DNA of 47,623 bases from a virus. Taxonomy: Duplodnaviria; Heunggongvirae; Uroviricota; Caudoviricetes. How positions within the stretch are numbered: the stretch's first letter is position 1; every line of letters starts with the position of its first letter. Below, in pieces: positions 28,364-46,327 of this stretch. The notes under the pieces were generated by a model. That model did not search any database. It had not been told where the DNA came from and saw only the letters and a program-made list of their open reading frames with translations. The stretch lies in IMG/VR virus record IMGVR_UViG_2541047842_000006, one strand, 5' to 3'. The translations under genes and the position numbers were made by a program.

Positions 28364-29558
<1,195 letters not shown>

Positions 29559-30100
29559 TTAGGTCCGTTCTCAATACCAAATTCAACTTCCTGATTCTCA
29601 GTTAATGTTTTGAAATCGTTGCTCTGAATTGCTGAGAAATGGACAAACACATCTTTGCTGCCATCTTTCGGCGTGATGAAACCAAAACCTTTTTCAGGGT
29701 TAAACCATTTCACTAAACCAGTCATTTTGTTAGACATAATTATTACCTTTTGAAGAAATTAGCCCTTGGGCAGAATGGTCCGAAAAAAAATATCAGAGAG
29801 AAAAACCAACAAGGAAATCTCAAGAGGTACAAATAATAAAATTATAACAATGACTGCTTCAGATAAATTTGTAACAAACCAGAACACCATTAACGCATGA
29901 TTAACCACCCATAGCAAGGATTACTTTTGTAAAGAAAAACACAGCAATGAAAGAATAGCTTTATTTATTAATAATAACGTGTCATTCTGATTAAGACCTT
30001 TTATCTTACCCTTAAGATTTCAGGAATTTTGGCTCATGGAAGAGTCCTTTTTATTTAAATTTTACATTCCGCGATGTAAATGTTCCGATTTAATATTACC

Positions 30101-31124
<1,024 letters not shown>

Positions 31125-31128
<4 letters not shown>

Positions 31129-31412
31129 ATATATTTATGATGAGGACGCTCGTGCTTATTGGCAGGATTTTCAATCTTAAAGGAGTACTGATGCTGCAGA
31201 TAAGACTCAACTTTTTCTGACAATTTTTCTGCTACTTCCAGGAAGACTTGCCGGACGCTCCTTCTGGCTGCTGCCTCATAAAACTCCAGCGCAGCTCCTT
31301 CAACACGGTCCATGGCGACATCCAGGTCAAAAATTTCACCGTCAAAGCGTTCTTTGTCCTGTAAGGCTACAGTTACCGTAACTTTATTCTCAAAATTACG
31401 GACTCCTTTCAC
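31125..31412 (-). CDS. small prophage protein between holin and endolysin (YdfR-like)
   Basis: 95-aa ORF in the slot occupied by ydfR in Qin; no function inferred. Confidence 0.45.
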
Positions 31413-31440
31413 AACCAGTTCATAGTCTTGAGTCGTTGGA

Positions 31441-31656
31441 TTACTCTCCTCTCGCAGCCTTACGCCTGTCTTCTTTAATCTTGAAATAAAGATTTGTCAG
31501 ATACGTCAGCAGGCCAAAAACCAGGCTACCCAGCACACCGATTGCAGCCCACTGTGACGGAGTTACTTTATCGAGTAACTGCAATGCCCAGAAACCAGCA
31601 TTACCCGCCGATGTGCCATAGGCAACACCTGTTGTTAACTTATCCATTGATTTCAT
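31441..31656 (-). CDS. class II holin (S21-type pinholin) with dual-start motif MKSMDK
   Basis: 71 aa from [29 protein letters not shown]...[15 protein letters not shown]; recalled near-identity to phage 21 S. Confidence 0.8.
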
Positions 31657-31875
31657 ATCCTCACCCCGATGTACACGGATGGTGCAATATGTTTGAAAAG
31701 ATCGGAGTCTACGGGGTAGTTTTGACAGCACACGTTGTTCTCAACGGCGCTAAAAAAACATACACATTAAAAATGTGGGTAATTATTTTGAAAGAAAGTC
31801 ATATATAAAATAATAATACGAGAAATGTTTTCATATTTAGTGTACTGTATACGGCCATTTATACAGGAAAAGCCT

Positions 31876-32046
31876 ATGTCAGAACGTAAAAACTCAAAAT
31901 CACGCCGTAATTATCTCGTTAAATGTTCCTGCCCAAACTGCACCCAAGAGTCAGAACACAGTTTTTCAAGAGTACAAAAAGGTGCCCTTTTGATCTGCCC
32001 TCATTGCAACAAAGTATTCCAGACAAATCTTAAAGCTGTAGCCTGA
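31876..32046 (+). CDS. small zinc-ribbon protein (C-x2-C ... C-x2-C)
   Basis: 56 aa from internal Met (MSERKNSKSRRNYLVKCSCPNCTQ...ICPHCNKVF); plus-strand moron inside the late region. Confidence 0.4.
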   Translation: MSERKNSKSRRNYLVKCSCPNCTQESEHSFSRVQKGALLICPHCNKVFQTNLKAVA

Positions 32047-32107
32047 TTGATTTTATTAGTAACAAGTATTTTTTATATTTTAATAATATATTTAAAGCAG
32101 ATAATAA

Positions 32108-32128
32108 AAAACCCGCCTGAGCGGGTTT
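32108..32128 (-). terminator. Rho-independent terminator hairpin (AAACCCGC-CTGA-GCGGGTTT) with U-tract on the minus strand
   Basis: GC stem followed on the minus strand by TTTTTTATTAT; downstream of cspB. Confidence 0.5.
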
Positions 32129-32409
32129 GAGATTGTGGTGCTTTTTGTGGGAGTCATCCACTTACGCACTTTGTTTTGCCATGCCAGCAGTTAGCTTCTG
32201 CTGTAAAACTATTCATGCAGCAAACCTGCACTTCACCACAATGGTTAGCATACTTTTCCTGATTAAGATTTTGCCAAATATGCTAGCCATTGTTTCATGT
32301 ATTGGACCTCCTTACTTTTTATTAAAGAGATCCAATATTCACTACTCTGTCCGTATCTCTACTCAGGCATCAGCCTTCTTCGTTATCGTATACAGACGAG
32401 CGATGAATT

Positions 32410-32625
32410 TTAATCAGTAATGATGACATTTGCTGCTGCAGGACCTTTAGCACCACTCTCTATAGAGAAGGTAACCTTTTGACCTTCAAATAAGGTTCGA
32501 TAATTATCATTCTGAATCGCAGAAAAATGCACAAACACATCTTTACTACCATCAACAGGAGAAATAAAGCCGAAACCTTTATCAGCGTTAAACCATTTTA
32601 CTAAACCAGTCATTTTATTTGACAT
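32410..32625 (-). CDS. cspB: cold shock protein CspB
   Basis: 71 aa, [38 protein letters not shown]... with RNP1/RNP2 motifs. Confidence 0.9.
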
Positions 32626-32925
32626 TCTACATTCCTTAACTTGAGCCTTTCGGCATAAATGGTTTGCATAACAGAAACGACTTCGTACTTAATTGGAGAG
32701 ACTCAAAGAAGGAATAAGTGAATAACACCTGAAATGAGAACTGCTTTAGTAAACTACTTCGTATATCGTCTGTTCTTCAAACCGACGCAATCATTAACGC
32801 ATAGTTGAACATATGAAGCAATGTTTATTTTAGACATCCAGCCATCTTCAACCCCATCAAAAAACTATAGCTTTCTTCAGGAACGTGTGTATAGTGCGCC
32901 AAGTTATCAGTATTAAGGAATTTTT

Positions 32926-33138
32926 TTGTCCCGTAAAATGACAGGAATTGTCAAAACCTTTGACGGCAAAAGCGGCAAGGGTCTTATCACCCCATCCGAT
33001 GGTCGTATCGATGTCCAGCTTCATGTTTCAGCGCTCAATCTCCGCGATGCAGAAGAAATTACCACCGGATTACGCGTGGAATTTTGCCGGATAAATGGTC
33101 TGCGTGGCCCTTCAGCTGCCAATGTTTACCTTTCATGA
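32926..33138 (+). CDS. cspF: cold shock protein CspF-like
   Basis: 70 aa, [18 protein letters not shown]...[21 protein letters not shown]; divergent from cspB. Confidence 0.85.
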
Positions 33139-33192
33139 GCTATATTAAAGCTTTAATTTCAGGCCCCATCGGATCACACATGGAGAGTTTTT

Positions 33193-33282
33193 ATGAATAA
33201 CCCCGTCTGTCTTGATGACTGGTTGATTGGCTTTAAAAGCTTATGCTGTACTTTGGCCGTAATAGCTCTGCTAATAATATAA
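33193..33282 (+). CDS. small hydrophobic protein (29 aa)
   Basis: ATG with strong RBS (GGAGAGTTTTTATG); product [29 protein letters not shown]. Confidence 0.3.
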
Positions 33283-33430
33283 TAAGCAGACTCATTGTGT
33301 TTAGGGACATTGTACTGGAAGAAAATATTTTAAACATCAGGCAAATAACCAAGTCACCAGCTAAATAATAAGTTAACAGACATGAGTCCCGGGATGAGAT
33401 TCAACATTACCATTGCCCCATTTAAAGCAC

Positions 33431-33456
33431 AAAACCCGCTCATCAGCGGGTTTTCT
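33431..33456 (-). terminator. bidirectional intrinsic terminator hairpin (AAAACCCGC-TCATCA-GCGGGTTTT); candidate tR' downstream of Q
   Basis: 9-bp stem with U-tracts on both strands, ~100 bp downstream of the Q stop where the late promoter/terminator lie in lambdoid phages. Confidence 0.5.
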
Positions 33457-33559
33457 ACTTTTTCTTAACGTCGGGTATACAAAGCCCATCGTTGAAAAAA
33501 TTTTATCCATATTTTTTGAAAAATGCAAACATCATGTCGCCATCTTCAGCAAAAATCAT

Positions 33560-34312
33560 TTATCTCGTCACCTTCCTCAATTGCGCTTCCGCGTATGCTT
33601 CTTCCTGCCAGCACTTTGTTACCAGTTTATCAATGACGTCCGCATACCCCTTATACCACTGATAATCGGTCAGGTCTGGTACCAGCTTCTGGACATGACG
33701 TCGTGCCAGCGTGGTCGGTAAACGACTAAATCGGTTTCCATTACAACGCCCACAAATCTTATATACCGGTACGCCATGAAACCGGGTTCTTTTTTCATCC
33801 AGAACAATCCCTTTACCCTTACACCCTCTGCACGCTGTGCTGACTTCGCCCTTACCATGGCAATGCTGACATAGTTCCTTCACCCATTCTTCCTTGATTA
33901 CAGATTCCCCGCGTCTGTAGTGTTTCACCACTTCGCGCAATACATTATAAAATCCCGTACCTGAACAATGCTCACAGCGAGCCTTACTTGCCGCAGACCT
34001 GGAGTAATCAGCAAAGGCAAAATTCACAAGGTAAGGAATAATCTGTAACCGGATTTCTTCACTCAATTTGTTCAATGTCGGGTTATCCAGTGCCATCGCG
34101 TAATTTAGCAGGCCTTCAATCGCAAACTGAGGGTCCTGAACACCAACTTTTGCCAGAAATAAGGCCAACCCAAGTGGTGCTTTCGACTGCACCATCCCCT
34201 GCGCTGCCATTACATCCGTAATTGTTAAACAACCGGTGCCTGTCGCTGGAGCGTCATCGCTCAATTTTGGAGATTTTGGGGAGTAATATTTTGGTAAGGC
34301 TTCAAGGTTCAT
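33560..34312 (-). CDS. late-gene antiterminator Q (phage 21/82-type)
   Basis: 250 aa with multiple CxxC zinc-finger motifs (CEHCSGTG, CQHCHGKG, CRGCKGKG, CGRCNG); upstream of late region. Confidence 0.85.
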   Translation of the reverse strand: MNLEALPKYYSPKSPKLSDDAPATGTGCLTITDVMAAQGMVQSKAPLGLALFLAKVGVQDPQFAIEGLLNYAMALDNPTLNKLSEEIRLQIIPYLVNFAFADYSRSAASKARCEHCSGTGFYNVLREVVKHYRRGESVIKEEWVKELCQHCHGKGEVSTACRGCKGKGIVLDEKRTRFHGVPVYKICGRCNGNRFSRLPTTLARRHVQKLVPDLTDYQWYKGYADVIDKLVTKCWQEEAYAEAQLRKVTR

Positions 34313-34325
34313 GCTCGTTCTCCAC

Positions 34326-35414
34326 TTACGCCAGTACGCCAGTTGCCAGCGCGCGATCGATAAAACGAAATATCAGCTCCAGTTGGGAGCCATACTTCTC
34401 TTCAAATGCCACTGTATCCGTATGCAGCTCGTTGTGATGCTTTCTGCACAAAGGCAACACAAAGAGATCATGTGCTTTTGTTCCCATTCCGCCCTGCCCG
34501 TGACCAATCAGATGATGCGGATCGTCGGCTGGCATACCGCAGCAAGCACACGGCTGTGTCTTAACCCAACGAGTGTATTTCTCCTTAACCCAGCGGCGAC
34601 GTTTAGGCAGCTTCATGAAAGATTCCGGAGACTCTGGATCAACGGTGATGCTTACCACCGTCTTTTCCTGTGGTGGTTTTTGTTGCTGGTGGGCGTAAGG
34701 CAACGGTGCAAGATTTTCTGTGCGTTGTTTCAATATGCTGGTGGCGGTCTGCTCTCCCTGTACGATGTCGCTTTCGCGGTACACCGAGCAGATTTTTTCC
34801 GCTGGTAATCCCAGCGAACGACGCGATACAGCCTCAGGTAGTGCATCCACCACCTGATTGCAGACCGCCCACCAGGATAATTCAGCCAAAGATAATTCCC
34901 GCTCCTGCGTACCGCTTATTGCGTGACGGATGACGTCAATCACCCATGCTGTCAGATTTTGTTGAGCAAGCAGCTCCAGTGATTCCGATGTCTGGTCACG
35001 CAGTTGGTTGTCGCAGTGCCAGCACAACACCATTGCGCCGGTACCATAACGGTGAATGACTGTTTCAGTGTGATGGTAATCGCCATTAGGCCACTGGCAG
35101 GATGTAACATGACGTAATAGCCAGTCAGACAATGCGCCAACGCCGCCAGTAGCACGAATCACCCGTTCGTTACTAAAAAACGGCAGCAATGTTTTGTCTT
35201 CTGCCAGCGGCTGGCGAACGGCAGGAACGACTCCGGATGGCAGATTTCGCATGCTTTTTGGTTCCGGTTCCACCAGCACTCGAGGATTATGAAATATCTG
35301 TATGGATTCACGGCCCGGCTTAAGGACCACCAGCCCAAGCTCAGGCACCAGAACAGGTCTAAGTAATACCCGCACGTTACCTCCAGATCCGTTGCTGGAA
35401 AGTGCGGGACGCAC
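34326..35414 (-). CDS. DUF968-family protein with C-terminal HNH-like zinc finger (YdfU/NinG-like)
   Basis: 362 aa; C-terminal CACCGMPADDPHHLIGHGQGGMGTKAHDLFVLPLCRKHHNELH. Confidence 0.7.
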   Translation of the reverse strand: MRPALSSNGSGGNVRVLLRPVLVPELGLVVLKPGRESIQIFHNPRVLVEPEPKSMRNLPSGVVPAVRQPLAEDKTLLPFFSNERVIRATGGVGALSDWLLRHVTSCQWPNGDYHHTETVIHRYGTGAMVLCWHCDNQLRDQTSESLELLAQQNLTAWVIDVIRHAISGTQERELSLAELSWWAVCNQVVDALPEAVSRRSLGLPAEKICSVYRESDIVQGEQTATSILKQRTENLAPLPYAHQQQKPPQEKTVVSITVDPESPESFMKLPKRRRWVKEKYTRWVKTQPCACCGMPADDPHHLIGHGQGGMGTKAHDLFVLPLCRKHHNELHTDTVAFEEKYGSQLELIFRFIDRALATGVLA

Positions 35415-35655
35415 GTGGTGGGCGTTCGGAATAAGGCAGCCTGACAGAGATTATCCAGTGCCGATAGTCGAGACTGAGAGCTTTCTTAACCTCGAACCCG
35501 CGCCTGCGGTAAGAATGAATCAGCCATTCGGCCTGTTCTGCAGTGCATGGAGGGTGCTGGAACCATTCAGACTTGAATGCGTGAGAATACCGCCCGTGCG
35601 TGCAGGCAAGAACGGGCGAATTATCAGAATTGTAATATTTTACGTTGCGTGCCAT
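35377..35655 (-). CDS. hypothetical nin-region protein
   Basis: 92-aa ORF overlapping the 5' end of the DUF968 gene; no recognised family. Confidence 0.35.
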   Translation of the reverse strand: MARNVKYYNSDNSPVLACTHGRYSHAFKSEWFQHPPCTAEQAEWLIHSYRRRGFEVKKALSLDYRHWIISVRLPYSERPPRASRTFQQRIWR

Positions 35656-35721
35656 CGGTTTTCTCCGGTGGCACGGTGTTACTCAGCGGGAGTTCAGCCC
35701 CGCGCAAGATTGTAGATGAGT

Positions 35722-35973
35722 TTATTCTTCTGCAAAAGCAGAAAAGCCAGCTTTTATTCCGATCTCTTTCAATGCCTGTAATGAAGTGACAAACTCACCT
35801 TCGCGCAAGATAAATCCGTCCGTGACCCGAGCATCCACAAAATTAATTAACGCAGCCCCATTCTTTCGCAAACACATAATGCGGTAATGACTAACAAGAT
35901 TTCCATTTTCAACGCACACAGCATAGAGGCCATCTTCACAAAAAATTTTACGCAGTTCTTCGATGTTCATCAT
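35722..35973 (-). CDS. small nin-region protein (Rem-like by position and size)
   Basis: 83-aa ORF between DUF968 gene and hokD. Confidence 0.4.
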   Translation of the reverse strand: MMNIEELRKIFCEDGLYAVCVENGNLVSHYRIMCLRKNGAALINFVDARVTDGFILREGEFVTSLQALKEIGIKAGFSAFAEE

Positions 35974-36189
35974 CAGAATCCTTCCGGATAATTAGCTCTC
36001 CCCTTTAAGGGACCATCCCTCTTATCCCTGCGCGCTACTTAAGTATTTTTGATTCTATTCCGGCACCGTCCAGATCTTCAAACGCGTTGAAAATAAAAAC
36101 AAAAACCCGCCGAAGCGGGTTAAGTGCGGGTGCGTTGAGGATGCCTGCCACATCAGAGGTGGCGAGGGATTTCTCCCTCGCCGGGTCTC

Positions 36190-36345
36190 TTACTCCTCAG
36201 GTTCGTAAGCTGTGAAGACAGCGACCTCCGTCTGGCCGGTTCGGATTCGTACCTCGCAGAGGTCTTTCCTCGTTACCAGTGCCGTCACTATGACGGTTAA
36301 ACAGATGACGATCAGGGCGATTAACATCGCCTTTTGCTGCTTCAT
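36190..36345 (-). CDS. hokD: Hok-family membrane toxin (HokD/RelF-like)
   Basis: 51 aa MKQQKAMLIALIVICLTVIVTALVTRKDLCEVRIRTGQTEVAVFTAYEPEE; longer overlapping frame is mok-like. Confidence 0.85.
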   Translation of the reverse strand: MKQQKAMLIALIVICLTVIVTALVTRKDLCEVRIRTGQTEVAVFTAYEPEE

Positions 36346-37019
36346 AGCCTGCTTCTCCTTGCCTTTCGGCTCGTAAGAGGCTAACCTACATGTGTCTAGC
36401 ATGAAATTGGCCTCAGATTAATGTTAAGCGTCTTGCAGGACGCGTAATGTTAACTGGGGCTTTTCTCTATCTGCCTTTGGTGTTCATGCCCGAGGCAGAT
36501 AGCCTCAAGCACCCGCAGCCATTCTACTTAACTACCGTTACCTCGCCAATATGAAATCAGTCAGAAAGGCGATCCATAAGAACAATAGCAAGACAATAAA
36601 TCGCCATTACAGCCGTAATAGCCAGCGCACATTTGAGAACCAGCACCACAACCTCCTGTATTGGACGTAGACCAGTCCTGATGAATATGAGGCTGTCTCG
36701 TCAGTGATTCAATACAACTATTGGGTATAGTTTCTCTGATTTTTTCTGTGGAAATGGGGCACAACCACTAGTCACCACCAGCACTTCTTTTAATACGCAA
36801 AGTCCGACACAAGCTAACCTTCTAGTCCGCTTTGAGCGAAAAACAGCCATAATTTAGTGCCACGTATATAATGATAGAGCTATTCAAGCTAGCAATTCAC
36901 ATGTAAAAATTCAGAGGGTAGAAGCACATAGTTATAAATGTTGGCTCCATCGACAAATTGCGGTCTCAAGTACATTTATTAATGTTGCCCCCGCATTAAC
37001 AAATCATCAAGGTGACGAC

Positions 37020-38807
37020 ATGGACGATATTAATATCAGCCTCGACGAACTTAACACTATTGATTTATCCCCCTTAATCCAGAGTAAGCTGCCAGTTACC
37101 TGCTTTGATATCACAAAGTATCTTTCTAGCCTAGGTGATGGAAGAGCGGAGATAAGACTGCTAACCCATATTTGCGGTTTTCACTTTCGTCCCGAAAATC
37201 CACAGGTACCATTTGGTCCGTGCTTTCAAAGCAGCCAAGGTAGATCTGCAATTCCGGATGACATTAACGGGTTGTCGCTGGAGGTACTTTCTCAATTTTG
37301 CCCGACGATAGAGCTACCCGAACTTCAAGCTCGTATTGCTGATACACTTTGGGTTCGTAAAATTGGTGGAATCCGTTTTCCTTTGCTGGCAGTCCGTGCT
37401 TATTATGCGTCCAGTATAGCTATTATGACATCGCAAGGGACGTGGGTTAGTGCTTTAGAACGCCTAGAGCGTGCGCTTAGGCTGTGTTGTTTTTTTCGAA
37501 AGAATACTGATTTCAGGGATGAATTTGATCAGCTTTCGGCACATCTACTAGCAGAGTATGAACGTACCAGAGAACAAGGCGATTCACCTTATCCGCTGCG
37601 ACTCCTGCAACTCGATATCGACTGTAAAGTGAGTGAGCCATCTTTTATTGCCCAGGAACTCCTGTTTCTGACAAAAAACTATCTGGCTCAAAAATTATTT
37701 TCATTTGCCGTCGATGCCTGTAAAACCGCAATCACGATTGCGAATAGGTGCTGTGACAGAGATACACAGTTTGAATTCTGGCGGCTTCTTGCCGATACAC
37801 ATCTGGAAGAGTCAAAATTCCAAGATGGCGGTATGATTTCGGCAGCCTGCATGCAGAATGCTATTGAAGCACTGGCTAATATTCCAGGAACCCGAATAGA
37901 ACGTCTTGCGCTGTATGAAGAAATGCGTGATTACCAAATCGAATCCCGTCACCAGATGTCTATCCTTCAGTCTCCCCCTCAAGATATTAGTGAGATTGTC
38001 CATCAAGCCAAGAGTCGGGTAGTCGGAAGAGATATGTTTGATATGGTTTTCAGACTTGCGATGCTGGTCTGTCGGCCAACCAGCATTGAGAGACTTAAGG
38101 CTCAAGCAATAGAACAAAAGGCCAACAGCATAGCTTGGATGTTTGGATCAACACATATTGATCATGAGGGAATGACACTTGCTCGCATACCCGCAGGATT
38201 GGGGATTGATGATGCAAATGGGGCAGTTATTTGGCCCATAATGATGACGAGAATGCGTATCGACCATGAGTTGGCAGTAGCTGGGCAAATTATTCCTGCT
38301 ACAGATGAGATCACAATGAAATATCCAATCTCGGAGGCGTTTTTTCGCGATATGTTCATCAATCATCCCTTCATCCCGTTTGGGCATGAAGAGTTTTTCA
38401 TCAAGGGTATGGTTTGCGGTTTCAATGGAGATTTTATGACGGCATGCCACGTGTTGATTCCCCAGATCGAAAATAGTCTGAGATATGTGGCTAAAATTAA
38501 AGGTGAGGAACCATCGCAGCTTCACGGGGACGGTTCGCAAGAGCGAAATGGACTCAAGGGATTACTAGATAATCCACTGATTATTGAAGCTTTCGGCGTA
38601 GACATAATTGGCAATCTTCAGGCCTTACTGGTAGATAAAATCTATGGTGATTTACGAAATCAACTAGCTCACGGATATGTGCCTGCCGGTTACTACAATC
38701 AACCTCCCTGCATTTTTGCATGGTGGCTTGTATTGCACATTCTAATGAACCCTACGGCGAGATACTGGCAAGCCACTTATGGCCAAGAGAGTGAGGCTCA
38801 GACTTAA
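37020..38807 (+). CDS. orphan 595-aa protein with C-terminal RNxxxH (HEPN-like) motif; candidate abortive-infection/defence protein
   Basis: long ORF with good RBS (AAGGTGACGACATG), opposite strand to neighbours, AT-richer than flanks; C-terminal ...GDLRNQLAHGY fits the HEPN R-x4-H signature; no Walker or other recognised motif. Confidence 0.55.
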   Translation: MDDINISLDELNTIDLSPLIQSKLPVTCFDITKYLSSLGDGRAEIRLLTHICGFHFRPENPQVPFGPCFQSSQGRSAIPDDINGLSLEVLSQFCPTIELPELQARIADTLWVRKIGGIRFPLLAVRAYYASSIAIMTSQGTWVSALERLERALRLCCFFRKNTDFRDEFDQLSAHLLAEYERTREQGDSPYPLRLLQLDIDCKVSEPSFIAQELLFLTKNYLAQKLFSFAVDACKTAITIANRCCDRDTQFEFWRLLADTHLEESKFQDGGMISAACMQNAIEALANIPGTRIERLALYEEMRDYQIESRHQMSILQSPPQDISEIVHQAKSRVVGRDMFDMVFRLAMLVCRPTSIERLKAQAIEQKANSIAWMFGSTHIDHEGMTLARIPAGLGIDDANGAVIWPIMMTRMRIDHELAVAGQIIPATDEITMKYPISEAFFRDMFINHPFIPFGHEEFFIKGMVCGFNGDFMTACHVLIPQIENSLRYVAKIKGEEPSQLHGDGSQERNGLKGLLDNPLIIEAFGVDIIGNLQALLVDKIYGDLRNQLAHGYVPAGYYNQPPCIFAWWLVLHILMNPTARYWQATYGQESEAQT

Positions 38808-39025
38808 AGTGAATAAGTTTACGAAGTTGGCACTTCCGGATGCATGTCCATATGAGTTGAGGCGATTTGGTTAATAAGGTTGAGTGCTGCTGAAATTATT
38901 CGATGTCCGCTTTTGGCACAAAGCGGACAACCACGCCAGATCTACCCTGTGCCATGAAAAATGAGAATGTCAATTCACTCCTGAACTAATGCTTTTTAAT
39001 CTAGTAACGTCTAAAATACCTAACA

Positions 39026-39427
39026 TTATCCCTGATAAAATGCCAGTATGCGCTGCATAACTTCACTCATCCGGCACTCGCGACAGATTATGTTTAGGCG
39101 ACTGTCGTAGCGACGTATTTCTCCATCAGGTAACGACCAGATAAGGTCCGGATCAACCACAGCTGTTTTCTTCACCTTTGCCCTCGAGAGTTTTTTGCGG
39201 GCGTTTTGCCAGTCCTTACGCGCCTGTTCAGACGGGAATAACCCGTAGCCGGAGTTGTATACATCGCCACTGGCTACCAGCTCTCTGGCAAGAACGCTCA
39301 TCAGATATCTAGTCGCACCTGTTTTAGCTTCCAGTTGCCGTAACGTCTCACGACCGCTCTGGCGCACGAGTTCCACCACCTGCCCTTTAATTTTTTCCCG
39401 CTCTTCTTGTGTAAAAACTTTTGCCAC
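39026..39427 (-). CDS. hypothetical protein downstream of replication initiator
   Basis: 133-aa ORF, basic/helical N-terminus; convergent with the 595-aa gene. Confidence 0.45.
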   Translation of the reverse strand: MAKVFTQEEREKIKGQVVELVRQSGRETLRQLEAKTGATRYLMSVLARELVASGDVYNSGYGLFPSEQARKDWQNARKKLSRAKVKKTAVVDPDLIWSLPDGEIRRYDSRLNIICRECRMSEVMQRILAFYQG

Positions 39428-39467
39428 AAGTCCCCCTTAAAATTACCTCATGACCTGAAATCAAAAC

Positions 39468-40433
39468 TTATCCTCTGAAACCAGGCGGAATTTCTGTATC
39501 CGGTTCAGAAATATGATTAACACAACGCTGTACAGGTGAACGCCCCAGGCGGATGACCAGTTCGTCCCATTTTTCGCGGAGCTTTGACGGGCTCATGATG
39601 TTTTTTACCCAGAATGGATCCCGCTGTACCCGACCAAACATTTCACAAATTTGTCTGTGGCTTCTGCCATCCAGCATCCGCATTGTGCGCACATCATTGG
39701 CCCAGACAGTCCAGTTAGGCTCTTTTGGTCGCATGATCTCGCCATCATCACTGGCGGCCTGTTCGTAGAGACCCACGATCCGCCCCCATATCCACTGCGC
39801 ACACGCCAGATCCTCCTGGCTACCCCACTGGCGTTTTTTCGCACTAAACACAACTGCGCCAGGGTGCCGGATTAAAAAATCCTGTTCAGCCGTCTGCGGG
39901 TCCGGTTGCGAAGCTTCCGGACGAAAAGTGTTTTTATTCTCTGTAGTAATCTCTGTTGTATTCTCTGTAGGATCATCGGGCCATTTTGACCCGATGACAT
40001 TGGGTCGTTTTGAACCAATGGAGCGTTTCATTTTGACCTCTTCCATCGTGTCATTTTGACCTGATGGAGCGGCGCATTTTGAACCGATGGATTCGCTCAA
40101 TTTGCCATCATCTAAAAGCTCGCTTCCATAGTTAATCGTGTAGAAATTGGTCATATCGCGCTTTGATTTATTGAGCTTTTCACAACGCAAAAGCCCCAGC
40201 GTTTTCAGACTTGCAAACGCGCGCTTTAACGTTGACTCTGACCAGAATGGGAACTGTTCCAGCCATTGTTCCGTTGTGTTGTAAATCCAGCGAACACCAT
40301 CACATTCCATGCCGGAATTGGTATCTCTCAACCAGTAATGCAACTGCTGCAACACAATGGCTTCATTTAAGCCAATCTTCATCGCAAGCTGTGTGTTTAT
40401 AACCAGTGGGCGTTCAGCAAAAAGAAGGCTCAT
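39468..40433 (-). CDS. replication initiator (lambda O-like replisome organiser) carrying the origin iterons
   Basis: ORF 39468..40487; N-terminal domain (MSLLFAERPLVINTQLAMKIGLNEAIVLQQLHYWL), central region encoded by DNA iterons (repeated IGSK peptide), then AT-rich tract. Confidence 0.65.
   Translation of the reverse strand: MSLLFAERPLVINTQLAMKIGLNEAIVLQQLHYWLRDTNSGMECDGVRWIYNTTEQWLEQFPFWSESTLKRAFASLKTLGLLRCEKLNKSKRDMTNFYTINYGSELLDDGKLSESIGSKCAAPSGQNDTMEEVKMKRSIGSKRPNVIGSKWPDDPTENTTEITTENKNTFRPEASQPDPQTAEQDFLIRHPGAVVFSAKKRQWGSQEDLACAQWIWGRIVGLYEQAASDDGEIMRPKEPNWTVWANDVRTMRMLDGRSHRQICEMFGRVQRDPFWVKNIMSPSKLREKWDELVIRLGRSPVQRCVNHISEPDTEIPPGFRG
39937..40112. repeat. origin-like iterons: ~6 copies of CATTTTGA(C/A)C..GATGG at ~23-bp spacing plus 3 x TCTCTGTAG, followed by an AT-rich tract
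   Basis: read directly inside the O-like gene. Confidence 0.6.
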
Positions 40434-40935
40434 AATTCCATCCAGCTTTTTGTTGGTATTGCTGTCGATACGCAAGTTTGAAAGCAATTGCTTTTTCTAT
40501 AAGTTCGTCAGTTTCACGATCCACTACGGCAGGATCAGCAAAAAGCAGTCCGGACTCCACCACATCGCCATATTCTTTGTTTAACCCGGCGATCATGTAC
40601 GTGATGCTTTTTCCGTCACTAATTTCACGATACAACCTGAAATCATTAATCCGGATAGCCTCCATAATTGCAGGCACTAGCGCCGTGAACTTTTCACGCT
40701 TATCCCTGGTGTCGATAGCCTTCCAGCGTTCGAATATCTTCACTCGATTAACGCCAAGCGCTCGCTGATCAACCGCGCCACCTTCATCTGTGACACGCTG
40801 AACATCGATGTTCGGGCGCTCTTTCAAAGCCCAGAATGCTTCAGTGATTAATATCGTCGCCTGCTCCTGTGTCATTCCTGGTCGACATATCCAGGCATCC
40901 AGAGCCTCACGAGCCTGTTCAGGAGTGATTTTCAT
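40414..40935 (-). CDS. hypothetical early-region protein (cII/YdaT position)
   Basis: 173-aa ORF between cro-like gene and replication initiator. Confidence 0.4.
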   Translation of the reverse strand: MKITPEQAREALDAWICRPGMTQEQATILITEAFWALKERPNIDVQRVTDEGGAVDQRALGVNRVKIFERWKAIDTRDKREKFTALVPAIMEAIRINDFRLYREISDGKSITYMIAGLNKEYGDVVESGLLFADPAVVDRETDELIEKAIAFKLAYRQQYQQKAGWNYEPSFC

Positions 40936-41146
40936 TGTTCAACCGCCCCGCCCGCTTCGTCTTACGATATTCGTCATAAACCTTGGGATCATACAGAAGC
41001 TCGCCGCCAGATGCCTCCTGTAGACGCATCGCGCGACCTTCAGGAACCAGCTCTTGCCATTGAGAAACAGCAGATGGGTCAACGCCAGCAGCTTTCGCTA
41101 CTTTGGCTTTCGTACCGTAAAAATTAATTACGTCTGATTTAAACAT
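40919..41146 (-). CDS. Cro-like HTH regulator (DicC-like)
   Basis: 75 aa from internal Met (MFKSDVINFYGTKAKVAKAAGVDPSAVSQW...); divergent from the repressor gene. Confidence 0.7.
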   Translation of the reverse strand: MFKSDVINFYGTKAKVAKAAGVDPSAVSQWQELVPEGRAMRLQEASGGELLYDPKVYDEYRKTKRAGRLNNENHS

Positions 41147-41159
41147 CGCACCTCCAGTA

Positions 41160-41173
41160 TTGAGTTTTCTCAA
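41160..41173. promoter_or_regulatory. candidate operator palindrome TTGAGTTTTCTCAA in the divergent cro/repressor intergenic region
   Basis: perfect 5-bp inverted repeat with 4-bp spacer between the two divergent starts. Confidence 0.4.
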
Positions 41174-41223
41174 TGCTAATCACTCAAGGAATCTCAAGTC
41201 AAGGGTTATTAAGATATCTAAAT

Positions 41224-41631
41224 ATGAACGAGAAAACTTTAGGTCAACGCATTAGAGAAAGACGTAAGCAGGTAGGTTTAAGTCAAAACGGTTTAAGCAA
41301 AGCTGCTGGCGTATCTGGCTCATCAATTTCATTATGGGAAAGTGACCATACAGCCCCGCGCGGGCAAAATTTGCATCGCCTCGCCGAGGTATTGCAATGT
41401 TCACCAACCTGGATACTGTTTGGCGACGAGGACAAAACACCAGCTCCCCCTGTTTCACTCGATAGTGCCTTAGACTTATCGGAAGATGAGTTAGAGATGC
41501 TGCGTTTGTATCGCGCACTTCCTAAATCAGAGCAACAAGCACAACTCAGCGAACTCCGCGCCCGCGTTGAGAATTTTAATCGCCTGTTCACCGAGCTATT
41601 AGAGGCTCGCAAACGCAACAAGCATCAATAA
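41224..41631 (+). CDS. XRE-family HTH repressor (DicA-like)
   Basis: 135 aa from internal Met (MNEKTLGQRIRERRKQVGLSQNGLSKAAGVSGSSISLWESD...NLHRLAEVLQCSPTWILFGDEDK); recalled similarity to DicA. Confidence 0.85.
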   Translation: MNEKTLGQRIRERRKQVGLSQNGLSKAAGVSGSSISLWESDHTAPRGQNLHRLAEVLQCSPTWILFGDEDKTPAPPVSLDSALDLSEDELEMLRLYRALPKSEQQAQLSELRARVENFNRLFTELLEARKRNKHQ

Positions 41632-41823
41632 TCATCCCTTCACAAAATTTTAAAGCCTTACATTTCAATGTATTGGCTTTATCTTGCGCCAATACTTGAG
41701 TTTTCTCATCAAAAAGCCTTGGCGAAAAATAATGAGAAAACTAAATTACCTCCATCAACACACCGCACGGTGTTCTCAGCAAACAGTTCCGCTACCCCGG
41801 CGTTAAGGGGAAATGAGGTCAGC

Positions 41824-41979
41824 ATGGATACTATCGATCTTGGCAACAACGAATCTCTGGTGTACGGCGTGTTTCCAAACCAGGACGGCACGTTCACCGC
41901 AATGACGTATACCAAAAGCAAAACGTTTAAAACCGAAAATGGTGCCCGTCGCTGGCTGGAAAGAAACTCAGGTGAGTGA
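41824..41979 (+). CDS. small protein YdfA-like
   Basis: 51 aa from MDTIDLGNNESLVYGVFPNQDGTFTAMTYTKSKTFKTENGARRWL...; RBS GAGGT upstream. Confidence 0.6.
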   Translation: MDTIDLGNNESLVYGVFPNQDGTFTAMTYTKSKTFKTENGARRWLERNSGE

Positions 41980-41980
41980 T

Positions 41981-42556
41981 ATGGATTTCGACACAATCAT
42001 GGAAAAGGCTTACGAAGAATACTTCGAAGGCCTTGCCGAAGGCGAAGAAGCTCTCAGCTTCAGTGAGTTTAAACAGGCACTCAGAATAAGAATGCGCTCT
42101 CACAATGACGCGGAGCACAAATATGAGAAGCAAAATCAGACCGCAGAAAATTTTGTTCTGGAACCCGGAGAAACGCTTTTCAAAATTCCCGTTACGTGCC
42201 CCATTTGCGGTTTTACATCAGAAGAACTTGACGACTCCTGTAACAATCAGGAAACAACCAAGTATGTCGAAGATGATACCGAGTGCGCACGAAGAACGAT
42301 TATATCCACGAGTCCAAACTCCAGGACCAATAAATCTCACTTTGAGAGGGTGATTAATCCACTCCCCCAAACCAATAAAAAAGATGCCGGAGGACAAAAA
42401 AACCAATGGAACAACGGGATATCTGTCAAAAAAAGACGTTCCATTAAAGACAAACAACGCAGCGCCAACAACTGTAAGCGCTTTATACCAGTAATCAATT
42501 TTCATGTTCTTAAGCGGATTTATTGGTGGTTGCGACATTGCTTAATGAATCCTTAA
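41981..42556 (+). CDS. YdfB/YdfC-like protein, single 191-aa reading frame with CPICG motif
   Basis: start overlaps ydfA stop (TGATATG); N-terminus MDFDTIMEKAYEEYFEGLAEGEEALSFSEFKQALRIRMRSHND. Confidence 0.5.
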   Translation: MDFDTIMEKAYEEYFEGLAEGEEALSFSEFKQALRIRMRSHNDAEHKYEKQNQTAENFVLEPGETLFKIPVTCPICGFTSEELDDSCNNQETTKYVEDDTECARRTIISTSPNSRTNKSHFERVINPLPQTNKKDAGGQKNQWNNGISVKKRRSIKDKQRSANNCKRFIPVINFHVLKRIYWWLRHCLMNP

Positions 42557-42815
42557 AACTGTGGTGATTTTAAGGATACCACCTCGCCTGACGTGGTTAA
42601 AAGCAGGCACACAACACGAAAGCGCACGGCGAAGTTCGTCTCACTGTACGGTGTCGTCAAATTTAATTCGACCGTGCGCTTCCGGTTGTGGCAACCCGCG
42701 AAATGGCGCGGCGGTAAGTATGGCGGGGTTATTCCTTCCCCGTTGAGGACACCGAGTTGTCAGGTTGACCATACGCTTAAGCGACAACCCCGCTGCAACG
42801 CCCTCTGTTATCAAT

Positions 42816-42873
42816 TTTCTGGTGACGTTTGGCGGTATCAGTTTTACTCCGTGACTGCTCTGCCGCCGTTTTT
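42816..42873 (+). ncRNA. dicF: DicF antisense sRNA (cell-division inhibitor, targets ftsZ mRNA)
   Basis: TTTCTGGTGACGTTTGGCGGTATCAGTTTTACTCCGTGACTGCTCTGCCGCC then TTTTT matches recalled DicF; between ydfB/C and dicB as in K-12. Confidence 0.8.
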
Positions 42874-43042
42874 AAAGTGAATTTTGTGATGCGGTGAATG
42901 CGGCTAAGCGCACGCGGAACAGTTAAAACCAAAAACAGTGTTATGGGTGGATTCTCTGTATCCGGCGTTAATTGTTAACTGGTTAACGTCACCTGGAGGC
43001 ACCAGGCACTGCATCACAAAATTCATTGTTGAGGACGCGATA

Positions 43043-43231
43043 ATGAAAACGTTATTACCAAACGTTAATACGTCTGAAGGTTGTTTTGAAATTGGTGTCA
43101 CTATCAGTAACCCTGTATTTACTGAAGATGCCATTAACAAGAGAAAACAAGAACGGGAGCTATTAAATAAAATATGCATTGTTTCAATGCTGGCTCGTTT
43201 ACGTCTGATGCCAAAAGGATGTGCACAATGA
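43043..43231 (+). CDS. dicB: cell division inhibitor DicB
   Basis: 62 aa MKTLLPNVNTSEGCFEIGVTISNPVFTEDAINKRKQERELLNKICIVSMLARLRLMPKGCAQ. Confidence 0.9.
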   Translation: MKTLLPNVNTSEGCFEIGVTISNPVFTEDAINKRKQERELLNKICIVSMLARLRLMPKGCAQ

Positions 43232-43419
43232 ATTCAGCATTTGCGCTTGTTCTGACAGTTTTTCTTGTTTCCGGAGAGCCAGTTGATATTGCAGTCAGTG
43301 TTCACAGGACAATGCAGGAGTGTATGACTGCAGCAACCGAACAGAAAATTCCCGGTAACTGTTACCCGGTCGATAAAGTTATTCACCAGTATAATATCGA
43401 AATCCCGGCAGGTCTTTAA
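43228..43419 (+). CDS. ydfD: small lysis/membrane protein YdfD
   Basis: 63 aa MNSAFALVLTVFLVSGEPVDIAVSVHRTMQECMTAATEQ...; start overlaps dicB stop (ATGA). Confidence 0.85.
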   Translation: MNSAFALVLTVFLVSGEPVDIAVSVHRTMQECMTAATEQKIPGNCYPVDKVIHQYNIEIPAGL

Positions 43420-43512
43420 AACAGTTCCGTAATAAATATCCGGTTTCATTCTTATATGCCAGCAATGGCAGGGATTTGTTCATCCTTAAATCTGTCATGA
43501 GGTTAAAACAAA

Positions 43513-45984
43513 ATGAGTAAAGTCTTTATTTGCGCCGCTATTCCTGACGAACTGGCAACAAGGGAAGAAGGCGCTGTGGCTGTAGCCACAGCCATTGAAG
43601 CTGGCGACGAACGCCGTGCTCGAGCAAAATTTCACTGGCAATTCCTGGAACATTATCCGGCTGCTCAGGACTGCGCTTATAAATTTATTGTCTGCGAGGA
43701 TAAACCTGGCATACCCCGCCCTGCCCTCGATTCATGGGATGCTGAATATATGCAGGAAAACCGCTGGGATGAGGAGTCTGCTTCTTTTGTCCCGGTTGAG
43801 ACTGAATCCGATCCGATGAACGTCACTTTTGACAAGCTGGCCCCTGAAGTACAGAACGCTGTCATGGTTAAGTTCGACACATGTGAAAACATCACCGTTG
43901 ATATGGTTATTAGCGCACAGGAATTGTTGCAGGAAGACATGGCAACATTCGACGGACATATCGTTGAAGCGTTGATGAAAATGCCAGAAGTTAACGCCAT
44001 GTATCCGGAGCTTAAGTTGCACGCCATTGGGTGGGTTAAGCATAAATGTATTCCTGGTGCTAAATGGCCCGAAATTCAGGCAGAGATGCGCATCTGGAAA
44101 AAACGTCGCGAAGGTGAACGCAAGGAAACCGGAAAATACACGTCTGTTGTTGATCTCGCCCGCGCCAGAGCCAATCAACAGTACACTGAAAATTCAACAG
44201 GAAAAATCAGCCCGGTCATTGCTGCCATTCATCGCGAATACAAGCAGACATGGAAAACACTGGATGACGAACTGGCCTACGCTCTCTGGCCTGGTGATGT
44301 GGATGCCGGAAACATTGACGGCAGCATCCATCGCTGGGCAAAAAATGAAGTTATCGATAACGACCGCGAAGACTGGAAGCGTATCTCGGCATCAATGCGC
44401 AAACAGCCTGATGCCCTTCGCTACGACCGCCAAACTATTTTTGGCCTTGTCCGTGAACGTCCGATCGACATTCACAAAGATCCCGTAGCACTGAACAAAT
44501 ATATCTGCGAATACCTGACGACAAAGGGCGTGTTTGAGAATGAAGAAACAGACCTGGGCACTGTTGATGTTCTCCAGTCATCAGAAACACAAACTGATGC
44601 AGTGGAAACTGAGGTATCTGATATCCCAAAAAATGAAACCGCGCCGGAAGCTGAACCATCTGTAGAGCGTGAGGGGCCGTTCTATTTCCTCTTCGCAGAT
44701 AAGGACGGAGAAAAATACGGTCGCGCAAACAAACTTTCTGGTCTGGATAAGGCACTGGCTGCTGGCGCCACTGAAATCACAAAAGAAGAATATTTTGCCC
44801 GAAAAAATGGCACATACACGGGCTTACCGCAAAATGTAGATACCGCTGAAGATTCAGAACAACCAGAGCCGATAAAAGTTACCGCTGACGAAGTAAACAA
44901 AATTATGCAGGCAGCCAATATCATCCAGCCTGACGCCGATAAGTTGCTTGCTGCATCACGTGGTGAATTTGTTGAAGGGATTAGTGACCCGAATGATCCG
45001 AAATGGGTTAAGGGGATCCAGACCCGCGATTCTGTGAACCAGAACCAGCATGAATCGGAACGGAACTACCAAAAAGCGGAACAAAACAGCCCAAATGCGT
45101 TACAAAACGAGCCAGAAACGAAACAGCCTGAATCAGTGGCGCAACAGGAAGTGGAAAAAGTCTGCACCGCCTGCGGTCAGACCGGCGGCGGCAACTGCCC
45201 TGATTGTGGCGCGGTAATGGGCGACGCAACATACCAGGAAACATTCGATGAAGAGTATCAGGTTGAAGTTCAGGAAGATGATCCGGAGAAAATGGAAGGC
45301 GCTGAACATCCACACAAGGAGAACACTGGCGGCAATCAGCATCACGATAGCGATAATGAAACTGGCGAGACGGCAGATCACTCAATTAAGGTGAACGGTC
45401 ATCACGAAATCACATCCACCAGCAGGACGTGTGACCATCTAATGATCGACCTTGAAACCATGGGAAAAAATCCTGATGCCCCGATCATCTCAATAGGTGC
45501 AATATTTTTCGATCCGCAAACCGGAGATATGGGACCGGAATTTATTAAGACTATCGATCTGGAAACTGCTGGCGGAGTCATTGATCGGGACACCATTAAA
45601 TGGTGGTTTAAGCAATCACGCGAAGCGCAATCTGCCATTATGACCGATGAAATCCCGTTAGATGATGCACTGTTACAATTGCGGGAATTTATCGACGAAA
45701 ACTCCGGTGAATTTTTTGTTCAGGTCTGGGGAAATGGAGCCAACTTCGACAACACGATTTTGCGCCGTTCATACGAACGGCAGGGGATCCCCTGCCCGTG
45801 GCGTTACTACAACGATCGCGATGTACGCACAATCGTTGAGCTGGGGAAAGCCATAGACTTCGATGCCAGAACGGCTATTCAATTCGAAGGTGAGCGCCAT
45901 AATGCACTTGATGACGCCCGTTACCAGGCAAAATACGTTTCAGTTATCTGGCAAAAACTGATCCCGAGTCAGGCTGATTCTTAA
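43513..45984 (+). CDS. large YdfE-like protein with C-terminal DnaQ-like (DEDDh) 3'-5' exonuclease domain
   Basis: 823 aa; C-terminal motifs MIDLETMG (Exo I), VWGNGANFD (Exo II), HNALDDARY (Exo III); central CTACGQTGGGNCPDCG zinc ribbon. Confidence 0.7.
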   Translation: MSKVFICAAIPDELATREEGAVAVATAIEAGDERRARAKFHWQFLEHYPAAQDCAYKFIVCEDKPGIPRPALDSWDAEYMQENRWDEESASFVPVETESDPMNVTFDKLAPEVQNAVMVKFDTCENITVDMVISAQELLQEDMATFDGHIVEALMKMPEVNAMYPELKLHAIGWVKHKCIPGAKWPEIQAEMRIWKKRREGERKETGKYTSVVDLARARANQQYTENSTGKISPVIAAIHREYKQTWKTLDDELAYALWPGDVDAGNIDGSIHRWAKNEVIDNDREDWKRISASMRKQPDALRYDRQTIFGLVRERPIDIHKDPVALNKYICEYLTTKGVFENEETDLGTVDVLQSSETQTDAVETEVSDIPKNETAPEAEPSVEREGPFYFLFADKDGEKYGRANKLSGLDKALAAGATEITKEEYFARKNGTYTGLPQNVDTAEDSEQPEPIKVTADEVNKIMQAANIIQPDADKLLAASRGEFVEGISDPNDPKWVKGIQTRDSVNQNQHESERNYQKAEQNSPNALQNEPETKQPESVAQQEVEKVCTACGQTGGGNCPDCGAVMGDATYQETFDEEYQVEVQEDDPEKMEGAEHPHKENTGGNQHHDSDNETGETADHSIKVNGHHEITSTSRTCDHLMIDLETMGKNPDAPIISIGAIFFDPQTGDMGPEFIKTIDLETAGGVIDRDTIKWWFKQSREAQSAIMTDEIPLDDALLQLREFIDENSGEFFVQVWGNGANFDNTILRRSYERQGIPCPWRYYNDRDVRTIVELGKAIDFDARTAIQFEGERHNALDDARYQAKYVSVIWQKLIPSQADS

Positions 45985-46056
45985 TGTTCAACTGTCGCCG
46001 GTTGTGACTGGTATTCTGCAACCGGCGCTCGTCTAATATAAGAGATAAAGAAATCG

Positions 46057-46308
46057 ATGAGCGAAGTAATCATGATTGTCTCTCCCGGCAAATGGGTATC
46101 CGAAGAGCAGTTAATTGCGCTGAAAGGAATAAAAAAAGGTACGTTAAAAAAGGCCCGGGAAAAATCGTTTATGGAAGGAAGGGAATATAAGCATGTCGCT
46201 CATGACGGTATGCCATGGGATAACAGTCCATGCTTTTACAACCTGGAAGAAATTGATCGCTGGATTGAGCGCCAGGCATCAGCAAGACCAAGACGTCATC
46301 TTACTTGA
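46057..46308 (+). CDS. excisionase-like protein
   Basis: 83-aa ORF immediately upstream of integrase; small basic DNA-binding-type protein. Confidence 0.6.
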   Translation: MSEVIMIVSPGKWVSEEQLIALKGIKKGTLKKAREKSFMEGREYKHVAHDGMPWDNSPCFYNLEEIDRWIERQASARPRRHLT

Positions 46309-46327
46309 CTAAAAGCCACACTAACTA

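Follow-up and report, generated by a model that had tools for sequence, protein, structure and literature searches.

How is a hokD-type toxin gene expressed and kept in check when the relBE genes that precede it in the Qin prophage of Escherichia coli K-12 are missing? This question is raised by a 47,623-nt stretch of viral DNA (Caudoviricetes; IMG/VR record IMGVR_UViG_2541047842_000006), here called the window, in which 674 bp (36346-37019) separate the start of hok from the ATG of the next annotated gene (37020, plus strand). The first-pass annotation of this DNA, made from the sequence alone, had put the interval correctly at about 670 bp and had taken it for a non-coding spacer, left where relBE had been exchanged for another gene. 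Our analysis strongly favours a different view, in which three parts make up the interval: the regulatory half of a hok/mok/sok locus (36346-36549), a conserved block (36535-36824) and the start of an exchangeable cassette. As part of the same well-supported reading, the relB-relE-hokD operon of K-12 is a derived rearrangement, the block holds a probable membrane-peptide gene and the cassette carries a HEPN-type candidate anti-phage gene.

The hok/mok/sok locus

The toxin open reading frame (ORF) itself (36345..36190, minus strand) has 51 codons and is intact, as had been annotated. Its product matches Pfam HOK_GEF (PF01848) with an E-value of 3e-23 (cutoff 22 bits) and is 100% identical to HokD of K-12, and in strain 118UI hokD is annotated at the matching coordinates. 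Since hok points away from the cargo gene at 37020, the interval is the region upstream of hok, and it thus occupies the place where the regulatory elements sit in every hok/sok system. Rfam family RF01794, which is named ‘sok’ yet is modelled on the hok-sense leader, matches positions 36514..36340 of the minus strand over the full model (1-157) with 116 bits (E 7e-27; gathering score 59). The match begins at GGGUGCUUGAGG, the predicted 5' end of the hok mRNA at 36514, and the leader extends from there to 36346. Promoter prediction upstream of hok, a check proposed with the first-pass annotation, returned a candidate TTGGCG-17-TAGAAT (36549..36521, minus strand), with a 9/12 consensus match in the promoter scan. 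It ends 7 nt before the predicted mRNA 5' end and is invariant across six aligned alleles.

The predicted full-length hok mRNA measures about 418 nt (36514..36097, minus strand) and has a terminator hairpin near its 3' end, where the terminator scan found a terminator-like site (36121..36104). Folding of the 418-nt transcript gave -175 kcal/mol (z -8.2), with a 5'-3' helix in both the minimum free energy (MFE) and the centroid structure. Just before the terminator hairpin lies an fbi-like 3' element (36125..36149, minus strand) complementary to the tac-like 5' end of the mRNA (36494-36517). The inverted-repeat search recovered this complementarity as 9/9 and 12/15 matches in segments 344-375 nt apart, and such a tac/fbi pairing of the two mRNA ends has been described for R1 hok (PMC9841398).

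The 9-bp inverted repeat that had been pointed out in the spacer is real, with its coordinates shifted by 1-2 nt and a length of 10 bp in all. Its arms, 36467-36475 (CTATCTGCC) and 36494-36502 (GGCAGATAG), form the first stem-loop of the hok mRNA leader (36467..36502, minus strand; mRNA about +13 to +48). This stem is the first paired stem in the RF01794 alignment, and in the MFE fold it is stacked on the 5'-3' helix. Compared with the model consensus CUAUCUGCC/GGCAGAUAG, the stem CUuUCUGCC/GGCAGAaAG shows a compensatory change. By our estimate about 0.1 such 9-bp repeats (loop below 40 nt) are expected by chance per 674 bp, and the repeat by itself is therefore weakly beyond chance.

A mok reading frame of 70 codons (36402..36190, minus strand) is in frame with hok, with its ATG at 36402 and a GAGG Shine-Dalgarno sequence (36414-36411) 8 nt 5' of it, and its first 19 codons fall inside the interval. 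It equals the annotated mokW of phage 933W in length and position, and its product matches PHROG 251 ‘MokW-like host killing’ (E 8e-33). On the opposite strand, a predicted Sok antisense RNA gene (36359..36464, plus strand) comprises a promoter candidate and an RNA from about 36394 to 36464 that ends in a hairpin followed by UUUUCU. The Sok coordinates were transferred from the annotated sokW misc_RNA of 933W, the two loci being 93.5% identical. The Sok hairpin folds with a dG of -30.5 (z -5.5). The promoter candidate consists of TTGCCT (36359-36364) and TAACCT (36382-36387) at a spacing of 17; both hexamers were read by eye and lie below the scan threshold. At E<=1 over positions 35000-39500, the Rfam search gave, besides sok, only sub-threshold matches overlapping the hok terminator or leader; those to isrK (25.7 bits against a gathering score of 50), ceN48 and rsmX were taken as chance.

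Judged by homology and folding, the window, a full-length Qin-like lambdoid prophage in ydfJ, thus appears to hold a complete hok/mok/sok locus of the hokD/hokW type. The label of non-coding spacer does not hold for an interval with the start of mok, the hok leader, the predicted Sok gene, a hok promoter candidate, a small ORF and a border hairpin (the last two are described below). It had also seemed unclear how hok is expressed or restrained here, and the elements predicted within the interval (its own promoter, the leader, mok and the Sok gene) offer an answer. By homology to hok/sok of plasmid R1 and to hokW/sokW of 933W, the hok mRNA would start at about 36514 from its own promoter and would be translationally inert at full length through pairing of its 5' and 3' ends. 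Trimming at the 3' end would render it translatable via mok, and the short-lived Sok RNA from the opposite strand would neutralise it. Upon loss of the locus or a stop of transcription, Sok would decay first, and membrane damage by Hok would kill the cell.

A further observation concerns hok codon ~47 (36200-36215, GCUUACGAA), close to the ORF's 3' end, which is TAC (Tyr) in a UACG context. At the corresponding site, A-to-I editing to Cys has been reported for the hokC, hokD and hokE mRNAs (PMC12214031).

Comparison with K-12 Qin

The K-12 operon, relB-relE-hokD (relBEF), has relB, relE, ydfV and flxA, none of which is present in the window: tblastn with K-12 RelE, RelB, YdfV and FlxA over all 47.6 kb gave no match (best E 0.85; RelE 5.9, RelB 1.7), in agreement with the absence of relBE noted before. 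From rem through hok, K-12 and the window are 99.4% identical, with an identical HokD, 3' untranslated region and terminator; the genes that lie downstream (rem, ydfU and ydfT) are shared too. Alignment against K-12 had been suggested as a way to map the breakpoints, and it did so at both ends. The three-way alignment and the blast extents place the divergence at 36359/36360, beyond which K-12 runs on into relE. This breakpoint lies 13 nt before the hok ATG and directly adjoins the candidate sok -35 hexamer on its 5' side, so that K-12 is without this hexamer. K-12 keeps the hok Shine-Dalgarno sequence, the ORF, the fbi element and the terminator, and is without the mok start, sok, the leader stem-loops and the hok promoter, all of which lie upstream of -13. 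A blastn search of the K-12 slot against the window matched at 40656-40927 only. K-12 thus rejoins the window at 40656, within a ydaT-like gene that is the pseudogene ydfX in K-12, and the K-12-specific segment interrupts a functional unit at either end, the hok leader at one and the ydaT-like gene at the other.

The direction of the change is indicated by two junction probes, counted at >=80% coverage in 5426 complete E. coli genomes. The junction in the form of the window (201-bp probe) was found in 4022 of them, on chromosomes and plasmids and at up to 9 places per genome. The K-12 junction was found in 1165 genomes, always as one copy and at ~100% identity. From these sequence comparisons, the relE-hokD junction of K-12 is a single derived event and the full hok/sok arrangement is the widespread form. 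As part of our favoured reading, the rearrangement in K-12 very probably deleted the hok leader, sok, the conserved block, the cassette and replication genes. The polarity implied by the first-pass annotation, with relBE lost from the window, is thereby reversed, and the junction counts and the literature both have relBE as the insertion and the full arrangement as ancestral. According to PMC6379469, hokD ancestrally had an ORF of about 70 codons, which was shortened to 51 when the plasmid-derived relBE integrated. The K-12 hok loci except hokB have been inactivated by insertion sequence (IS) elements or rearrangement (PMC12214031). In a passage of PMC5120126 that cites Gotfredsen and Gerdes (1998), K-12 hokD is described as expressed by read-through from the relBE promoter.

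The conserved block

Between the hok promoter and the cassette lies an unannotated conserved block (36535..36824), which is covered to at least 80% in 1575 of the 5426 genomes, mostly at 90-95% identity, and is almost never annotated. A structured RNA was ruled out for this block (z -0.2). Immediately upstream of the hok promoter it holds a candidate small ORF (36646..36557, minus strand) of 29 codons, which has a GTG start with AGGAGG 6 nt upstream and encodes a hydrophobic peptide (VLVLKCALAITAVMAIYCLAIVLMDRLSD). The AGGAGG is invariant, and the 20 distinct variants contain no stops or indels. Variable columns amount to 16/90 in the ORF and 68/203 in the remaining block, and by codon position the variation is 5/3/8, highest at the third; the replacements are all conservative. 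The ORF is occasionally annotated, e.g. as WP_000960667.1, for which an exact look-up returned ‘hypothetical protein’ only. Searches of Pfam and PHROG gave no family match. We regard it as a probable gene for a small membrane protein; the product could also be a second toxin-like peptide. An ORF of 49 codons (36850..36701) was rejected: it starts in the allele-specific junction and has a frameshifting indel in homologues.

The cargo gene and the exchangeable slot

The exchangeable cassette spans ~36834-38904, i.e. 2.06 kb between two border hairpins. Among related prophages and phages, homology breaks at 36839-36850 and resumes at 38900-38906, and these breakpoints are coincident in at least nine complete cassette types as well as in partial ones. 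The interval ends with the cassette-specific 5' region of the cargo gene (36849..37019, plus strand). This region holds a perfect TATAAT (36867-36872) that is kept in a 92%-identical copy (locus L073) and may mark the cargo promoter; no sigma-70 site in this region passed the promoter scan. The cargo gene (37020..38807, plus strand) encodes a DUF7380 + DUF4209 protein of 595 amino acids with matches to Pfam DUF7380 (E 2e-34), to DUF4209 (PF13910; E 3e-8, residues 484-573) and to the PADLOC model PDC-S39 (E 8e-103), and with an RNQLAH (Rx4H) motif at residues 546-551. DUF4209 belongs to the C6orf70 HEPN family (PMC3710099), and on the basis of these matches the gene is a candidate anti-phage gene of the HEPN type. 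Its cassette was found in 153 genomes, that of ATCC 25922 among them.

Related prophages and phages carry at least ten different cargo alleles in this bounded slot, six of which match PADLOC defence or candidate models. Besides the gene described above, the alleles include a 310-amino-acid HEPN protein, PD-T7-1 (E 4e-157) in phage mEp460_ev081, FRG/PDC-S15 in phage Tritos, a DUF4145 protein with a weaker match to PD-T7-3 (E 4e-15), an ABC-3C system (PDC-M68), an AbiH fragment, an MFS/GGCT/LysR trio and several genes without an assigned function. An empty slot, searched for with a synthetic probe joining the left and right flanks, was found in 0 of the 5426 genomes. A swappable defence or addiction hotspot, as had been suspected at this position, is thus supported by the alleles, whereas an exchange of relBE for the cargo gene there is not, since the K-12 replacement spans 36360-40655, far beyond the cassette. 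The relBE segment of K-12 replaces a much larger stretch and is therefore not simply another allele of the slot. A defence hotspot next to hok/sok is a new instance of a known phenomenon. With validated PD-T7-1 and the candidates PDC-S39, PDC-S15 and PDC-M68 as alleles of one position, the slot can serve as a guide for mining defence genes.

The opposite side of hok/sok, occupied here by rem (35722-35973), is also variable when compared with two other loci (L011:2167-3923 and L017:2982-3820). Phage Tritos and strain 1506D011 have an ImmA/IrrE peptidase gene and a helix-turn-helix gene in the position of rem, and other strains are without rem. As the cargo slot is variable too, hok/sok is flanked by two variable positions.

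Alternative readings of the locus

That hokD is an orphan which lost its relBE partners, the interval being an unstructured spacer left by replacement of a toxin-antitoxin module, would agree with the absence of relBE from the window and with the variability of the adjoining slot. This is nevertheless highly improbable: the supposed spacer fits the hok leader/sok covariance model with 116 bits and is 93.5% identical to the annotated mok/hok/sok locus of 933W, and K-12 has the truncated form according to our comparative data and to PMC6379469, by which this explanation has already been refuted. More serious, though still rather unlikely in our judgement, is that the hok/sok copy is structurally complete and functionally decayed, contributing neither to prophage stabilisation nor to phage defence and being conserved by hitch-hiking. 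The published tests of chromosomal hokA, hokB and hokC were negative both for post-segregational killing and for activation by rifampicin (bioRxiv 10.1101/2025.08.07.668861), and the Sok -10 hexamer is weak, with no site in the promoter scan. Against such decay speak the intactness of all recognisable elements, an apparent constraint across thousands of copies, and the presence of the locus in inducible or isolated phages (933W, mEp460_ev081, Tritos and the PPompW phages), where depositors labelled it ‘phage maintenance protein’. In addition, the Hok protein is identical to that of K-12, which is reportedly toxic when overexpressed.

Some of these points, together with others, weigh against the composite reading as well. 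The Sok -10 hexamer TAACCT agrees with the consensus at 3/6 positions and failed the promoter scan, and the chromosomal hokA, hokB and hokC loci gave no post-segregational killing in the study cited above, so that the copy in the window could be regulatorily intact yet phenotypically silent. The coding evidence for the 29-codon ORF is modest, and PDC-S39 is a ‘candidate’ defence family without reported validation, the PDC families being unvalidated candidates. On balance the composite reading stays very probable, and the original finding is an ordinary, complete hok/mok/sok locus misread via the truncated K-12 reference. Both the polarity and the truncation were already known. The value of the present result is thus corrective, as the K-12 reference carries a damaged locus through which an ordinary complete hok/sok looks anomalous.

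The border hairpins

The left border hairpin of the slot (36825..36848) reads GTCCGCTTT GAGCGA AAAACAGCC, with a 3' arm that is degenerate in this allele, and homology between alleles breaks there in at least nine cassette types. The right border hairpin (38905..38928) reads GTCCGCTTT TGGCAC AAAGCGGAC and has a perfect 9-bp stem. The two sites share the stems GTCCGCTTT/AAAGCGGAC and differ in their loops, GAGCGA on the left and TGGCAC on the right. The ordered pair bounds every cargo cassette, and its order is kept irrespective of the strand of the cargo gene. In the window the 9-mer GTCCGCTTT has 3 copies, all at the two borders, compared with 0.39 expected. Across 45 loci, the 5' arm and the loop of the left site are constant and its 3' arm is specific to the cassette; in the right site the 5' arm is the cassette-specific part, whereas loop and 3' arm are constant. 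The arms are hence hybrid, with the left 5' arm and the right loop and 3' arm tracking the backbone and the remaining arms tracking the cassette; in some cassettes, the two cassette-linked arms are mutually complementary. Compensated stem changes numbered 120, compared with 66 +/- 8 in shuffles.

The same units also occur in other surroundings. In the unrelated backbone L073 (1326-3421), the DUF4209 cassette lies between an SRAP peptidase gene and umuDC-like genes at 92% identity, and homology to the window covers 36833-38928 only, starting at the left loop and ending with the final base of the right hairpin. In strain MB1 the match of the PD-T7-1 cassette to the phage copy sets in at the first base of the left hairpin. 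The MB1 slot (L210:771-6181) holds three tandem cassettes, the first of which directly abuts the left hairpin of the second; where the second meets the third, a right and a left hairpin are separated by 18 nt. A DUF2268 gene on an IncN-like plasmid stands between the two hairpins in their usual order, as does an NmrA/HxlR pair in a different lambdoid contig; loci with the ordered pair include L206:2683-3526, L034:1871-3726 and L045:1024-1089. The TGGCAC-type hairpin is present in 2601 E. coli genomes, on prophages and plasmids, with a median of 1 copy per genome (maximum 7). This differs from REP/BIME-type extragenic palindromes, which have a high dispersed copy number.

The terminator scan found no U run after either border hairpin on either strand, so neither qualifies as an intrinsic terminator. 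There was no Rfam match to the hairpins in positions 35000-39500 of the window or in six hairpin-rich loci. A literature search for the hairpin sequence returned primer matches only, and one for palindromes at hotspot borders returned nothing relevant.

The relBE module of K-12 also touches such a hairpin: on its relB side it departs from the plasmid copies inside one. K-12 ydfV (L001:5269-5574) spans an inverted, partly degenerate TGGCAC-type hairpin (GTCCGCTTTGTGCCAGGAGCAGCC) at the border of the module, which suggests that the ydfV annotation is an artefact covering the scar of a recombination.

Several further observations were made on these palindromes. A 28-bp palindrome, ATGTCCGCTTT-N6-AAAGCGGACAT, is common as a stand-alone extragenic repeat in soil Alphaproteobacteria (Pseudolabrys, Xanthobacteraceae, Rhizobium) and occurs in other phyla as well (loci L086-L205, e.g. 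L107, L117 and L118), with a high density in the alphaproteobacterial loci only. Most of its loops read TGACCC, TGGCAC or TGGCCC, within a locus they share one orientation, and the copies often stand in tandem about 45 nt apart. Conservation is confined to the palindrome, with none outside, and it has no Rfam family. A tyrosine recombinase of 200 amino acids (Phage_integrase, E 2e-17) lies within one slot allele in EC25 and MB1 (L005:5380-5982 and L210:2359-2961) and also near a TGGCAC-type hairpin on plasmid p98202 (L207:799-1401). It is a candidate for the enzyme acting on the hairpin sites, or else a Fim-like invertase. On the IncN-like plasmid, an IS110-family (RNA-guided) transposase gene (L206:1633-2706) ends 55 nt before the GAGCGA-loop hairpin, whose stem shows a compensatory T:A to A:T change.

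How the cassettes might move

The hairpin-delimited cassettes are the sole part of this work that may be new. A tentative proposal, to which we give a minor share of probability, is that the cargo represents a class of mobile gene cassettes not described before, whose units are each bounded by a GAGCGA-loop and a TGGCAC-loop hairpin (11-6-11, 28 bp). Hybrid arms are what would be expected if a circular cassette with one GAGCGA hairpin recombined site-specifically with a TGGCAC-type target hairpin, a type that is widespread in Proteobacteria. The arm pattern fits such a recombination between a cassette-borne GAGCGA and a target TGGCAC site, with the crossover between the 5' arm and the loop. 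Somewhat better odds, though still short of even, go to the explanation that the hairpins are incidental, RNA 3'-end or terminator-like structures of morons, and that the cargo is exchanged by homologous recombination in the conserved flanks (the 290-bp block and the DUF977 region). In all Qin-like alleles long flanks of 87-100% identity are present on both sides, the prophage encodes a RecE-like exonuclease, and the compensated stem changes, indicating selection for pairing, are compatible with a role in RNA. Against this explanation speak the presence of the same cassettes in backbones whose flanks are unrelated, where homology stops at the hairpins (L073 and MB1), a loop order of GAGCGA then TGGCAC that is constant whatever the cargo strand, and the missing U runs. 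Exchange may also proceed by short-homology recombination at the shared palindrome. How the cargo of hotspots is exchanged is an open question (discussion of PMC9122126), for which the border hairpin pair offers a testable handle.

Prophage context

From 29559 to 47623 the window is 99.99% identical to strain 118UI, and the part upstream of this is not collinear. Compared with the otherwise 99.9%-identical prophage of 118UI, the window is without the IS200C insertion (at ~6810), and a stretch of ~1.2 kb (28364-29559) has no counterpart in that strain.

Comparison with known systems

The locus in the window shares the Hok domain and the mok frame with hok/mok/sok (parB) of R1 and with hokW/mokW/sokW of 933W. 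The 5' stem-loop, the 5'-3' fold-back and an mRNA of about 0.4 kb are predicted for it as well, and so, with less certainty, is a cis-antisense Sok gene with a promoter and a terminator hairpin of its own. The likeness to 933W extends to 93.5% DNA identity and equal ORF lengths; the record of that phage has annotations for mokW, hokW and the antisense RNA SokW. As in mokW, mok of the window is in frame with hok (an extended ORF of 70 codons). The chromosomal mokC is also in frame, whereas in R1 the mok frame is shifted relative to hok. The intact hok/sok form is present in the sequenced phages 933W, mEp460_ev081, Evi, Tritos and the PPompW phages.

In its slot the window resembles the defence hotspots of P2 and P4 prophages (Rousset et al. 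2022, PMC9122126) and ‘morons’, in which one bounded position likewise holds many alternative defence or candidate defence genes. It differs in its Qin-like lambdoid backbone, where hok/sok and a ren-like DUF977 gene flank the slot, in having up to three tandem cassettes, and in its borders, an ordered hairpin pair of which PMC9122126 makes no mention. It thus adds a lambdoid example to the prophage defence hotspots.

The cassettes may further be compared with integron cassettes (attC) and XerCD-dependent pdif modules. The window has no IntI, its only integrase being the prophage tyrosine integrase at the far end, and the hairpins are without the attC consensus (R'' RYYYAAC / R' GTTRRRY). Unlike in integrons and pdif modules, each cassette has two sites with different loops, and in soil Alphaproteobacteria the TGGCAC/TGACCC-loop form is also common as an extragenic palindrome. 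The arm sequence is also unlike that of E. coli dif, whereas the 11-6-11 geometry (28 bp) resembles dif-type sites. In common with attC cassettes and pdif modules are a promoter-independent cargo, borders formed by short and imperfect palindromes, an arrangement in tandem arrays, the occurrence of one unit in different replicons, and hybrid sites consistent with a crossover inside the palindrome. If the mobile-cassette proposal is true, phage defence genes would be exchanged here by a system that resembles integrons or dif modules.

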